A stretch of 64,000 bases of DNA from Casimicrobiaceae bacterium (GCA_036406955.1 DASXAF010000125.1:732-64731), one strand, 5' to 3'. Numbered from the stretch's first letter, positions 44,679 to 48,176 are shown. Numbers and translations: made by a program. The notes: generated from the letters alone by a model not told the origin.

Positions 44679-45614
44679 ATGAACGCACTGGTCGAGTTTC
44701 CTGCGCTTGCCAACGCAAATCTTCTTTCTCAAATTGACATCGGGTACGACGAGGAAACGAAGACATTGCATTGGTGGATGCGGCCGGCGCCGCGTCCATG
44801 TTTCAACTCCACCTTCCTCGAAGAAGTTGCCGAGTTCGAAAGCCGCGTCGAGAAGCATAGCGGCTGGTTTATGCACCAAGGCCGTCATGTCCAAATTGAG
44901 AACGCGATCTTCGGAAGTCGGACACCAGGCGTATTCAACCTCGGTGGCGACCTTTCAATGTTTGTACAGGCGATTCTCAGAAAGGACACCCGCCTGCTGA
45001 CCCGTTATGGGTACCTTTGCGTCGACAACATGCTTCGCCGGATGGATGGATTCGGCGCGGGCGTCGTGACCTATAGTCTTGTGCAAGGTAAGGCATTTGG
45101 CGGCGGATTCGAGTGCGCGTTGTCCAGCGAGTACATCGTGGCCGAGCGAGGCGCGACGTTCTCCTTCCCTGAGGTTCTCTTCAATATGTTCCCGGGTATG
45201 GGAGCGATTTCTCTTCTTGCTCGGCGCATCGGTCTGCGTAAGGCAGAGGAAATCGTGATGAGCGGGCGAGTTTACAGCGCCAAGGAAATGTACGACTTCG
45301 GCGTGGTAGACGAATTGACCGAGGACGGTGCAGGGTTCGAGGCGAGCCGACTGCTAATTAAGGCTCGACAGCGCAGACGGAATACTTTTCGTGCAATGTC
45401 ACAGGCTAAGCGTCGCTTTCAACCGGTGACAGCCGAAGAGATGAAGTCGATTGTCGATGTGTGGGTGAATGCGGCGATGAATCTGGAGACGCGTGATCTT
45501 CGGATGATGGCGCGCTTGGTGAAGGCACAGGACCGCTTGATGAGTTCAAGCGAGGATGAAGCGGTTGCGATCGACACAATCTACGAACCGATGAAGGCGG
45601 TGGTCGGAGCTTGA
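44679..45614 (+). CDS. rpfF: DSF-family signal synthase (RpfF-like crotonase/enoyl-CoA hydratase)
   Basis: ORF 44670..45614. ATG 44679 is preferred because the Shine-Dalgarno sequence ggggag lies 8 nt upstream. It is colinear with Xanthomonas RpfF as I recall it: VFNLGGDLSMF, GGGFECALS, FPEVLFNMFPGMGA, VWVNAAMNL, LVKAQDR. A convergent rpfC homologue is adjacent. Confidence 0.85.
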   Translation: MNALVEFPALANANLLSQIDIGYDEETKTLHWWMRPAPRPCFNSTFLEEVAEFESRVEKHSGWFMHQGRHVQIENAIFGSRTPGVFNLGGDLSMFVQAILRKDTRLLTRYGYLCVDNMLRRMDGFGAGVVTYSLVQGKAFGGGFECALSSEYIVAERGATFSFPEVLFNMFPGMGAISLLARRIGLRKAEEIVMSGRVYSAKEMYDFGVVDELTEDGAGFEASRLLIKARQRRRNTFRAMSQAKRRFQPVTAEEMKSIVDVWVNAAMNLETRDLRMMARLVKAQDRLMSSSEDEAVAIDTIYEPMKAVVGA

Positions 45615-45641
45615 CGCTATCCCCAACCTGGTTTCGTAGTG

Positions 45642-48176
45642 CTACAACGCGATGCCGTACTCTGTCCGCATATACCGCTCGAGAACATCCAGTGTCGCTC
45701 TATAAGCAGTCCTGAGTTCGGCCGCCTTGCGTTTCCGGGCGGCCGATTCAGTCTCTAGCGGCAACGCTTCCATATCCTTGGAGAGAGCCGCTAGTCGCGT
45801 CGCGCCAATGCCAACCGCTGCACCCTTCAATGTGTGCAGAAGGTCTGCCAAATCTTCCGCCTTGTTACCAACGATGGAAGCATCGATCCTTGCAAGCAAT
45901 CCATCTACGTCAGAGCGGAAGCCGCGCAAAAGTTCCAAAAGGAAGCCTGAGTCGCGGGCAATATCCTCGAGTTGGCGGAGCCGGTCAGCGCTCACGAGGT
46001 CACCGTCGATGTGAACGGCCAGTCTCGGTGTGACGAGGGTTCTTAGCTGAGGCTGCTGATGTTTCGGCGGTCGTTTCGCGCTACGGTTTCTTGCAAGCTC
46101 GTCAATGCGCTCGAGTAGGAGAGCGGCATCGAACGGCTTGCCAATGAAGTCATCGGCTCCTGCCAGCCTCGCGATCTGCATAGCCTCCGGAGTCACCGAG
46201 GCGGAGAGAATAATCGCGGGCGTGTGGCTTTCGGCAAGCTCCATTGCTCTAATGGCTTTGATCACCTCAACGCCGGTACGCTGAGGCATGTTGAAATCGA
46301 GTATAGCCAGATCGGGATTCTCGGTCTCGTAAACATCGAGTGCTTCTTCGCCGTCGGACGCCAGTAGGACTGAGTGTCCTGCTGTCTTGAGCAACTGCGA
46401 AATAATCGCTTGGTTGGTCGTGTTGTCCTCTGCCACCAAGATTGTGAGTGCGTCGCGCTTACTCTCAAGTGCCTTCTGCAACCGGTCGCCATCGTGAGCT
46501 TCCTCCTCATTGCCCGCAATCGCCGCATGAATGGCGTTCGCAATGATTCGCGACGACGCATTTGCGCCCAAAGTGCACGCCCCTGGAATACTGTTCAATC
46601 GCGCACTATCAACGACCGACAACGGCTCCTGAGCGATATGAATCAGGGCAACAGCGCGTTCACCAAAGCGTTGTCGCACCGCCGCAAATGCCGAACATGC
46701 ATCGTCCACGGCGCAAGCAGCGACGAGCGCGCGCAAAGTCTTGCCGTCTGATTTGACGCGATCAAGGGCGAAAGCAAATGACGAAGGATCAGCTGTTTGT
46801 ACGTTTTCGGGGACCGCTCTCAGTCGCGCGGCGAATCGATCAGAGGCGGCTGCGTCTGCAACCAGCAAAGTAACGCAGTCATCGTCGGTTTTGGCGTTAG
46901 CTAATGGCTCAACCGGTACAGCGTCCCGCAACAGCGGCAACTCGAACCAAAACACGCTACCTTCGCCTAGCTTGCTCTCCGCACCGATGGTTCCGCCCAT
47001 CAGCTCCACGAGCTGCTTCGCGATTGTCGTGCCGAGGCCGGTTCCGCCATATTTGCGTGTTGTTGACTGGTCAGCCTGAACAAAACGCTCGAAAATCTTT
47101 GGAAGAGCCGTGTCGGAAATCCCAATACCCGTATCGCGAACCTCGAATCGAACGGTGACTCCTTCGGGCGATTCGCCGAGCAAGCGAGCGCAGAGCGCAA
47201 CTTCTCCCTTTTCCGTGAACTTGATGGCGTTGCCGACCAGGTTGAGCAGCACTTGGCGAAGATGGTGTGAGTCACCGCGCAACTGATAGTCGAGCTGCGG
47301 ATCGATCGACGCGTGAAGGTTGAGGCCCTTCCCCTTCGCATGAGGCCGCAACAACTGAACCAGTGCGTTGATCGTTGCGTGGAGGTCGAAGCTCGCCACT
47401 TCGACTGTCAGTCGCCCAGCCTCGATCTTGCTGATGTCGAGCACATCGTCAACAAGAGAACGAAGGACCGAAATCGAGTGCTTCAACAGCTTTATAAGTT
47501 CGCCTTGCTGATCGGTCAGCTCAGTTGCTCTAATCAGATCCACTGCGCCGACGATGCCGTTGAGCGGCGTCCTCATTTCGTGGCTCATGTTGGCCAGAAA
47601 CGTAGTCTTTGCGTTATTCGCCTCTTCGGCCTTCGCGCGCGCCTCCTGGATTCGTTTTAGCAGCGTGGACACGTACAGCGGCAAAATGACAAGGGCTAGT
47701 AAGAGACCAACACCGGCGGCTCGATGCAGTGCCCAGTAAGACGAGGTGGCGAGAACTAAAAGGAAGCCAAGGAGGCAGAGCGCTTGGCAGCCGAAAAGGT
47801 AGCGACGCCCATAGCGAAAGCCGTTGCCGAATGTGATAAACAGATAGACGCCGACCATGGCAACGCCGTACTCATCGGCGATCCACATGTACCAAGTAGC
47901 GCTACAGCTATCGACCAGCATGGCAACGAGCCGACGTGGCACGTTGACGCCGGGGAACGCGCAGATGGCGACAAAGAGAACCAGCCCGATTGAGAAGAAG
48001 ATGGCCACGCCGTAGACGGTTGCCGTCTGGGTGGGTGTCCAACTCTCGGGTGCGCCATGGAACAGCGCCATATAGGCCAGCAAACACCCGACGATGCCAA
48101 TCCGCAACAACGCCTGTTCGTGCTCGCTGTCGGGACGGTCCTTCAGCCTCCTGCGAATAAAACTGAGGCCATTCAT
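45642..48176 (-). CDS. rpfC: RpfC-like hybrid sensor kinase (5-TM sensor, HisKA/HATPase, extra internal module, receiver, HPt)
   Basis: 844-aa ORF. The N-terminus IRRRLKDRPDSEHEQALLRI, then RRLVAMLVDS and ITFGNGFRYGRRYL, match the RpfC input domain as I recall it. H-box: NMSHEMRTPLNG (His199). ATPase boxes: GTGLGTTIAKQLV. Receiver: ILVAEDNTTNQ...LAILDFNMP (Asp627). HPt: LLHTLKGAA (His781). Confidence 0.85.
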   Translation of the reverse strand: MNGLSFIRRRLKDRPDSEHEQALLRIGIVGCLLAYMALFHGAPESWTPTQTATVYGVAIFFSIGLVLFVAICAFPGVNVPRRLVAMLVDSCSATWYMWIADEYGVAMVGVYLFITFGNGFRYGRRYLFGCQALCLLGFLLVLATSSYWALHRAAGVGLLLALVILPLYVSTLLKRIQEARAKAEEANNAKTTFLANMSHEMRTPLNGIVGAVDLIRATELTDQQGELIKLLKHSISVLRSLVDDVLDISKIEAGRLTVEVASFDLHATINALVQLLRPHAKGKGLNLHASIDPQLDYQLRGDSHHLRQVLLNLVGNAIKFTEKGEVALCARLLGESPEGVTVRFEVRDTGIGISDTALPKIFERFVQADQSTTRKYGGTGLGTTIAKQLVELMGGTIGAESKLGEGSVFWFELPLLRDAVPVEPLANAKTDDDCVTLLVADAAASDRFAARLRAVPENVQTADPSSFAFALDRVKSDGKTLRALVAACAVDDACSAFAAVRQRFGERAVALIHIAQEPLSVVDSARLNSIPGACTLGANASSRIIANAIHAAIAGNEEEAHDGDRLQKALESKRDALTILVAEDNTTNQAIISQLLKTAGHSVLLASDGEEALDVYETENPDLAILDFNMPQRTGVEVIKAIRAMELAESHTPAIILSASVTPEAMQIARLAGADDFIGKPFDAALLLERIDELARNRSAKRPPKHQQPQLRTLVTPRLAVHIDGDLVSADRLRQLEDIARDSGFLLELLRGFRSDVDGLLARIDASIVGNKAEDLADLLHTLKGAAVGIGATRLAALSKDMEALPLETESAARKRKAAELRTAYRATLDVLERYMRTEYGIAL

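Follow-up and report, generated by a model that had tools for sequence, protein, structure and literature searches.

A DSF-type rpfF-rpfC gene pair in soil Casimicrobiaceae: probable synthase and sensor half of an RpfF/RpfC/RpfG circuit with an unlinked rpfG

To our knowledge, cell-cell signaling by the diffusible signal factor (DSF) has been studied almost exclusively in plant and human pathogens, namely Xanthomonas, Xylella, Stenotrophomonas and Burkholderia. In Xanthomonas, the genes are arranged in the order rpfG-(rpfH)-rpfC, convergent with rpfF (PMC4504480). Mutagenesis of the Xanthomonas campestris sensor RpfC has demonstrated that residues R15, D17, S18, E19 and Q22 are required for DSF binding and that the A21D replacement halves signaling (PMC5391125). 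Stenotrophomonas maltophilia is reported to possess alternative linked rpfF and rpfC alleles, rpf-1 and rpf-2, with the input region of RpfC as the main site of difference (PMC4517397). Here we describe a pair of convergent genes in a 64,000-nucleotide (64-kb) stretch of DNA from a Casimicrobiaceae bacterium (GCA_036406955.1 DASXAF010000125.1:732-64731; hereinafter, the window), an rpfF-like gene for a predicted DSF-family signal synthase (44679-45614, plus strand) and an rpfC-like gene for a hybrid sensor kinase (45642-48176, minus strand). The pair extends the known RpfF/RpfC systems to a new family; its kinase is of the long form, and its gene arrangement is split. It probably represents the synthase-and-sensor half of the canonical circuit that leads from DSF through RpfC and RpfG to cyclic di-GMP (c-di-GMP), with rpfG unlinked by rearrangement. 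A literature search found no paper that names both Casimicrobiaceae and rpfF.

The rpfF-like gene encodes a crotonase of 311 amino acids (aa) from an ATG start, which is also the start called for the crotonase on an independent JGI soil metagenome contig; an alternative GTG start at 44670 would yield a 314-aa protein. The product has the enoyl-CoA hydratase (ECH) fold (Pfam family ECH_1, E = 1.8e-20). In a comparison with all PDB chains, it is closer to the characterized RpfF proteins than to other crotonases, with 188 bits for both RpfF of Burkholderia cenocepacia (5fus) and RpfF of Cronobacter (6dgn), 162 bits for RpfF of X. campestris (3m6m) and 159 bits for 7zq7, against at most 53 bits for every other crotonase structure, including 50 bits for DspI (5wyb). 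The predicted catalytic residues E145 and E165 (in the 311-aa numbering) align with E141 and E161 of X. campestris RpfF, which occupy positions 157 and 177 of the 3m6m chain given the 16-residue offset of the tag, and the respective contexts, GGGFE and PEVLF, are retained. The claim of the initial annotation, which was made from the sequence of the window, that this is an RpfF-type crotonase with both glutamate contexts thus holds, and the comparison with X. campestris RpfF, B. cenocepacia RpfF and DspI argues against an ordinary hydratase. Because the protein is ~37% identical to both the Burkholderia and the Xanthomonas RpfF structures, which are themselves 40% identical to each other, it represents a third lineage of the RpfF clade. 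Among the NCBIfam models, NF006452/PRK08788 is matched with 335 bits (cutoff 177); relatives of the protein are labeled "DSF synthase" by JGI/KEGG, and the NCBI model names them as a generic crotonase/enoyl-CoA hydratase family. We consider the product a putative DSF-family synthase, with its chemistry predicted by homology.

The stop codons of the two genes are separated by 27 nucleotides (nt; 45615-45641), as initially annotated for this convergent pair. No terminator-like hairpin was detected in this gap, and the terminator and promoter scans yielded nothing beyond the shuffle expectation.

The rpfC-like gene encodes an 844-aa hybrid sensor kinase with the phosphorelay residues H199, D627 and H781; an identical protein is encoded on an independent JGI soil contig, with a 311-aa crotonase adjacent. 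The N-terminal sensor peptide MNGLSFIRRRLKDRPDSEHEQ (codons 1-21, 48114-48176, minus strand) is predicted to be periplasmic and contains an R-x-D-S-E-H-x-Q motif. Residues 14-21 of the window kinase, RPDSEHEQ, correspond to residues 15-22 of X. campestris RpfC, RADSEHAQ, a motif that was reconstructed from the residues named in the mutagenesis study (PMC5391125) rather than taken from an alignment with the full-length protein. All five DSF-sensing residues (R, D, S, E and Q) are kept in the window kinase, as is the equivalent of H20. An alignment of 14 kinase homologs shows no variation at R14, E18 and E20 and almost none at D16, S17 and H19. The membrane input domain (codons 22-175, 47652-48113, minus strand), delineated by a hydropathy scan and the alignment of homologs, contains four strong hydrophobic segments (residues 22-40, 56-74, 127-145 and 155-173) and a weaker one at ~95-115, a pattern that is consistent with the RpfC plan of five transmembrane (TM) helices and a short juxtamembrane linker. 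This domain includes FGNGFRYG, which is nearly invariant across the family. Pfam detects no HAMP domain in the kinase, and the H-box, at residue 199, follows the short juxtamembrane linker.

The remainder of the kinase, encoded on the minus strand throughout, consists of the HisKA and HATPase_c core (codons 189-415, 46932-47612), a Response_reg receiver that contains D627 (REC; codons 579-691, 46104-46442) and an HPt domain (codons 748-826, 45699-45935; Pfam Hpt, 38.5 bits) with H781 in the motif HTLKGAA, so that the HisKA-HATPase-REC-HPt architecture is complete with its relay residues. The RPDSEHEQ motif and the four Pfam domains agree with the initial description of this protein as an 844-aa kinase with an RpfC-type N-terminus and FGNGFRYG, followed by HisKA/HATPase, a receiver and HPt. 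The receiver is similar to the RpfF-binding receiver of X. campestris RpfC (3m6m_D; 83 bits, E = 1.3e-22), and the retention of the HPt domain implies that a receiver protein acts downstream. An extra segment of ~150 aa (codons 425-572, 46461-46904, minus strand) separates the kinase core from the receiver and is missing from the short-form relatives of 709-770 aa; the kinase-receiver linkers of the relatives fall into two length classes, 37-41 aa and 145-165 aa. Alignment of the long linker with a receiver alignment by hhalign (probability 61%, E = 8e-5, 111 columns) suggests that the insert is probably a degenerate (pseudo-)receiver. This assignment is tentative because its support comes from hhalign and the single-sequence AlphaFold2 model of residues 416-702 is uninformative, with a predicted local distance difference test score (pLDDT) of 40 and even the genuine receiver unfolded.

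Sensors of this type are widespread: among the genomes of GTDB species, 447 loci combine the GNGFR[YF]G pattern with homology to the input domain, and, in a set of 1.84 billion representatives, 2008 clusters (50% identity) match the sensor family, with most of the full-length members being 830-870 aa long. A homolog search with the kinase N-terminus returned short fragments and stand-alone input-domain proteins, and no full-length kinases. Stand-alone proteins (L050:9956-10618, L053:9986-10597, P0135, P0145, P0169 and P0183, where L-numbers denote loci of relatives) are RpfH-like, ~200 aa in length, and consist of an RpfC-type sensor peptide and the membrane input domain only, with their own C-terminus. 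They occur in metagenome-assembled genomes (MAGs) of Casimicrobiaceae, sometimes sharing a contig with rpfG.

No HD-GYP, GGDEF or EAL domain is encoded in the 64-kb window, as assessed by Pfam on ~55 open reading frames (ORFs), six-frame phmmer and regular-expression searches, and tblastn with 13 RpfG-like proteins. Accordingly, the window encodes neither a cognate REC-HD-GYP regulator (RpfG) of the kinase nor a PAS-GGDEF-EAL receptor of the RpfR type beside rpfF, and its sole AMP-ligase (58432-60408) is an acetoacetate-CoA ligase, not RpfB. Receivers are present only in the RpfC-like protein, in a DUF4118-GAF hybrid kinase (6290-8404) and in a sigma-54 PilR-like regulator (33613-34950) that has its own PilS-like kinase. 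The initial annotation had correctly noted the Xanthomonas-like convergent layout, the lack of RpfG and RpfH, of RpfB next to the pair and of RpfR anywhere in the window; none of the four is encoded in the window.

The REC-HD-GYP regulator that is missing from the window is present at the same locus in sibling genomes. We compared 96 loci of relatives and examined the best 80 of the 447 loci for pairing. At the genome level, the nearest relatives are MAGs of uncultured Casimicrobiaceae/Burkholderiales, with L007 as the best match (input domain 89% identical). The rpfC and rpfF genes are almost always adjacent and convergent among the 96 loci, and are convergent in nearly all of the best 80 of the 447. 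The order found in the window, acdH<etfA<etfB<(hydrolase, methyltransferase)rpfC>rpfF<ate<aat<tRNA-Arg M61>, recurs in ~35 loci from Casimicrobiaceae/Burkholderiales MAGs, and tRNA-Arg(CCT) is conserved everywhere, so the pair is not an insertion private to this genome. In other loci (L015, L019, L020, L038, L046, L079 and L092), rpfG is linked in the order pheST-ihfA>merR>tRNA-Pro rpfG>(hydrolase<)rpfC>rpfF<(LuxR)ate<aat<, or in the mirror image of this arrangement (L031, L033, L036, L042, L048 and L057), and more distant betaproteobacteria show a compact rpfG>rpfC>rpfF< organization (L056, L061, L065, L077, L078, L080 and L081). Where rpfG is linked, the whole rpfG-rpfC-rpfF-ate-aat block is located between tRNA-Pro(GGG), which precedes rpfG (L019:6805-6881, L092:7593-7669), and tRNA-Arg(CCT). 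The rpfG neighbors of the aat-ate-linked pair, in at least 13 sibling loci, are REC+HD_5 genes with the motif HHEKYDGSGYP. In Casimicrobiaceae, rpfG is anchored after pheT-ihfA-merR and is highly conserved, with the top 120 homologs all 83-95% identical and many of them labeled RpfG by JGI. Furthermore, in at least one metagenome contig, L107, ihfA-merR-rpfG is followed by 10 kb without rpfC or rpfF, and therefore both halves of a split system occur in nature. Given that the same aat-ate-linked pair is contiguous with a highly conserved REC-HD-GYP gene in sibling genomes, the absence of rpfG from the window is best read as a result of rearrangement. An "orphan" call that is made from one window can be an artifact of synteny breaks, and comparative loci resolve such calls. 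The initial designation of the pair as an orphan module with an unknown target accordingly gives way to a likely target, deduced for this genome from its siblings, and its description as an incompletely described signaling system is hard to maintain given that JGI/KEGG already label the relatives as DSF synthase, RpfC and RpfG.

We propose that the RpfF-type crotonase would convert a 3-hydroxyacyl carrier thioester to a free cis-2-enoic acid by means of the two conserved glutamates. The acid would be sensed outside the cell by the RxDSEHxQ peptide and the 5-TM input domain of the RpfC-type kinase, which would autophosphorylate H199 and pass the phosphate to D627 and then to H781. From H781, the phosphate would be transferred to the receiver of RpfG, a REC-HD-GYP c-di-GMP phosphodiesterase; the RpfC receiver may also restrain RpfF, as it does in Xanthomonas. 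The chemistry, the ligand and the phosphotransfer to RpfG are predicted from sequence. With respect to gene order, rpfG adjoins the pair in the siblings with pheT-ihfA-merR-tRNA-Pro-rpfG-(hydrolase)-rpfC><rpfF-ate-aat, and in the window lineage a rearrangement would have placed etfBA-acdH beside rpfC. We consider it likely that rpfG is present elsewhere in this organism, and the predicted position is still after pheT-ihfA-merR. The low GC content of the pair would stem from rapid evolution of the rpfF-rpfC segment and from its recombinational exchange at a fixed locus rather than from a private island.

Several observations weigh against this interpretation. The crotonase is just ~37% identical to characterized RpfF proteins and does not reach the cutoff of the RpfF equivalog model NF053515 (196 bits against 550), which is why we regard it as a sister lineage rather than an equivalog of xanthomonad RpfF. 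In the sensor peptide, Glu occupies the position that matches A21 of X. campestris RpfC, and therefore the ligand or the affinity may differ from those in X. campestris. Of all parts of the kinase, the HPt domain shows the lowest conservation (identity of 35-49% across relatives), whereas RpfG is very conserved. The analysis covers 64 kb of this genome, and the six RpfG homologs that were traced in search of an unlinked rpfG in a MAG with the window's order all come from other MAGs, in which rpfG is linked to rpfC or the contig ends just after rpfG. Hundreds of rpfG-like fragments at 80-99% likeness are found in the same soil samples, which contain too many strains for any of these to be assigned to this organism.

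A truly orphan pair would require that rpfG was lost and that the HPt domain feeds another unlinked regulator, such as a DNA-binding one as in PA1396-PA1397, or that RpfC mainly sequesters RpfF. No REC-HD-GYP gene lies within 10 kb in any of the ~35 loci with the window's order, nor in the 64 kb analyzed here; the HPt domain diverges fast; and outputs vary in distant relatives, with REC-PAS-GGDEF-EAL replacing REC-HD-GYP in Hyphomicrobiales MAGs. Nevertheless, we consider an orphan pair unlikely: RpfG orthologs are abundant across Casimicrobiaceae and 83-95% conserved at the housekeeping pheST-ihfA locus, an rpfG without an adjacent rpfC or rpfF exists (L107), and the window's other receivers are part of a hybrid kinase and of the PilR-like regulator that is already paired with a PilS-like kinase. 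Far less probable is the absence of any signaling function, with the crotonase acting as an enoyl-CoA hydratase in beta-oxidation together with the products of the etfBA, acyl-CoA dehydrogenase, ETF-QO and acetoacetate-CoA ligase genes and with an unrelated kinase next to it. The fatty-acid catabolic genes are indeed immediately to the right of the pair, and the NCBI model names the protein only as a member of the crotonase/enoyl-CoA hydratase family, but the crotonase gene stays with the RpfC-type kinase gene through every rearrangement, including loci that lack etfBA, the RpfF structures score three to four times higher than any hydratase, and the kinase carries the DSF-sensor motif.

The possibility that the pair is a recent foreign island, horizontally inserted next to a tRNA gene, arises from its composition, which the initial annotation had taken as apparently foreign. 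The GC content is 0.55-0.57 at the pair versus 0.67-0.72 around it, and the GC content of third codon positions (GC3) is 0.64 in both rpfF and rpfC versus 0.81-0.95 (~0.87) in the flanks; tRNA-Arg is located at the left edge of the low-GC block, and rpfF and rpfC are swapped between close relatives. The compositional difference is thus real, but it is not limited to the pair: GC3 is similarly low in the housekeeping genes aat (0.66) and ate (0.67), so the block extends over ~43.1-49.1 kb. In many relatives, the GC3 of rpfF/rpfC is 0.55-0.70, and that of the accessory hydrolase, methyltransferase and LuxR-solo genes is likewise low; rpfG and the flanks in relatives have a GC3 of 0.8-0.9, and in other relatives the pair itself is host-like. 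The same position is occupied in all relatives compared, including dozens of related genomes, with the tRNA conserved in all, and at the borders the search revealed only chance-level repeats, with no integrase, transposase or flanking direct repeats. Moreover, synonymous sites are saturated even in the comparison with the closest relative, L007, so that no recent import is shared with it. We therefore regard an island as improbable, and the "foreign" composition is better accounted for by allelic replacement through homologous recombination at a locus that was already in place.

Such replacement is suggested by comparisons of close relatives. L040 and the window share 80-92% protein identity in the S9 peptidase, M61, aat, ate and etfBA products versus 52% in RpfF and 51% in RpfC, and the DNA similarity between the two breaks exactly where ate ends (44538) and where etfB starts (49141). 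Across 1324 locus pairs, the correlation between the identity of the flanks and that of RpfF is only r = 0.32, and several further close pairs are discordant. In the 17 genomes that have all three genes, pairwise identity averages 81.5% in the HD-GYP part of RpfG, 55.5% in RpfF and 50.9% in the input domain of RpfC, and RpfF identities across the family form tiers of 93, 65-70, 50-60 and 41-46%. Between L004 and L037 on the one hand and L017, L018 and L021 on the other, the flanks are 92-95% identical, RpfF is 95-97% identical, and the kinase is 92-100% identical from the juxtamembrane region to the C-terminus, yet the 5-TM input domain is just 50-72% identical. These clean mosaics look like swaps by recombination at a domain boundary. 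Taken together, the data point to recombination at the resident locus that replaces alleles and swaps domains; the exchanges are not datable because third-position (synonymous) sites are saturated relative to L007 and L040.

More speculatively, rpfF-rpfC, and especially the RpfC input domain, might constitute a pherotype-like polymorphic cassette in soil Casimicrobiaceae, in which alternative, compositionally distinct alleles are swapped by homologous recombination at a fixed site and RpfG is near-invariant. We put this forward tentatively. If it is correct, co-occurring strains would speak different DSF "dialects" into one conserved c-di-GMP output, and the separation of rpfG from the cassette, as in the window, would be one outcome of cassette turnover. 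Should the hypervariability of the synthase and sensor-input genes, next to an 83-95% conserved RpfG, reflect signal specificity, no pherotype-like structure would have been described before this one in fatty-acid quorum sensing. The pherotype-like variability is the one aspect of the locus that might repay further work.

The window sequence occurs in soil metagenome runs. In addition, contigs that match parts of both genes with 0-3 mismatches are present in two metatranscriptome assemblies from soil, for example, 44604-44802 and 45315-45804 for rpfF, and 46239-46389, 46614-46764, 47269-47523 and 47491-47651 for rpfC. The two genes therefore appear to be transcribed in situ, with DNA carry-over in such libraries being possible. 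One of these RNA-run contigs (45315-45804) spans the 27-nt convergent junction and covers both 3' ends, which could result from read-through, antisense overlap or DNA carry-over. The locus thus presents RpfF/RpfC(/RpfG) as a resident and apparently transcribed feature of an abundant, essentially uncultured soil family.

On the left, the conserved neighbors of the pair throughout the family are aat (43102-43806) and ate (43773-44570), which encode N-end-rule aminoacyl-tRNA protein transferases, as identified with Pfam (43102-44570, plus strand). They are preceded by tRNA-Arg(CCT) (42957-43032, minus strand), a conserved landmark that separates the M61 peptidase gene from aat in each of the relatives examined; Rfam detects only the tRNA over 42.9-49.3 kb. 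An S9 prolyl-oligopeptidase gene (38892-41204, minus strand), located between the FAD-oxidase and M61 peptidase genes, marks the closest genus-level group of the window because it is common to L007 and L040 and absent from L004 and L006. Upstream of rpfC, a 966-nt stretch (48177-49142) forms the right-hand edge of the variable segment; it contains no credible ORF, has no Rfam match and is not alignable even to L007. At this position, relatives carry genes for a class-I methyltransferase, an alpha/beta hydrolase, a FabA-like protein and/or LuxR solo(s), or rpfG. When the stretch was searched for relics of rpfG and of the methyltransferase and hydrolase genes, the only match was weak and on the wrong strand (E = 0.007); we attribute it to chance. 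Farther to the right are etfBA and the genes for acyl-CoA dehydrogenase (acdH), ETF-QO and acetoacetate-CoA ligase. DUF5648 proteins are encoded beside acdH in the window and beside rpfG in L107, but these are not orthologs (37% identity) and have only the domain in common.

Some other features of the window and of the relatives are of note. Compared with L004 and L006, in which an Amidase_2 gene directly precedes the genes for the sigma-54 regulator and the PilS-like kinase, the window contains ~7 kb of extra DNA (26700-33600) that holds a gene for a 962-aa MalT-like AAA_16+GerE regulator (27700-30588) and a low-GC stretch at 31-34 kb (GC 0.61-0.64), which encodes a lone HisKA/HATPase kinase (32326-33465) and ORFs without a Pfam match. 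This ~7-kb extra region makes a stronger island candidate than the rpf pair does. Contigs L091, L093, L095 and L096 of relatives end 0.2-1.6 kb after rpfG, which suggests that assemblies break at the variable, lower-GC segment beyond this gene. In Hyphomicrobiales/Xanthobacteraceae MAGs (L064, L069, L071, L072, L074 and L086), a REC-PAS-GGDEF-EAL gene occupies the rpfG position upstream of rpfC and thereby combines the output logic of the RpfC type with that of the RpfR type. In many relatives (L033, L036, L046, L089, L092 and others), the rpf pair is flanked by LuxR solos (Autoind_bind+GerE) of low GC3, three of them in L002 (L002:6858-8703 and 14950-15750), which hints at a link between receptors of the acyl-homoserine lactone (AHL) type and the DSF locus. 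The window has no such gene.

Gram-positive pherotype cassettes, such as agrBDC and comQXP, also combine hypervariable, compositionally odd signal and sensor genes at a fixed locus with a conserved response regulator. The parallel is an analogy only, given that their peptide chemistry is unrelated to DSF and that the variability described here is known from sequence alone. Compared with S. maltophilia, in which two variants are found within one species, the Casimicrobiaceae locus shows many RpfF tiers across a family and clean domain-boundary mosaics. In Stenotrophomonas, rpfG stays linked. The window kinase resembles PA1396 of Pseudomonas aeruginosa in its RpfC-like membrane input and in the absence of an adjacent HD-GYP regulator (PMC4504480); unlike the window kinase, PA1396 has neither an HPt domain nor a cognate rpfF alongside. 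The B. cenocepacia RpfF (BCAM0581, 5fus) is the top-scoring solved structure together with its Cronobacter counterpart (188 bits), comes from the same order, Burkholderiales, and is likewise encoded convergently with its sensor gene, but the sensor in that species is the cytoplasmic PAS-GGDEF-EAL protein RpfR, whereas here it is a membrane kinase of the RpfC type, with no RpfR in the window. From the X. campestris system, the pair differs in the ~37% identity to RpfF, below the equivalog cutoff, in the Glu that replaces A21, and in the length of the kinase, which has 844 aa as opposed to 726 aa in X. campestris RpfC owing to the ~150-aa insert, possibly a pseudo-receiver. In addition, rpfG is unlinked here, neither rpfB nor rpfH is found beside the pair, and the host belongs to a betaproteobacterial soil lineage. 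The similarities to RpfF/RpfC/RpfG of X. campestris encompass the crotonase with both catalytic glutamates, the convergent rpfC and rpfF genes, and a kinase with the N-terminal R-x-D-S-E-H-x-Q peptide, a multi-TM input domain, no HAMP domain and the HisKA-HATPase-REC-HPt architecture. In the sibling genomes, the resemblance extends to a REC-HD-GYP gene located upstream of rpfC, which reproduces the Xanthomonas order rpfG-(rpfH)-rpfC.

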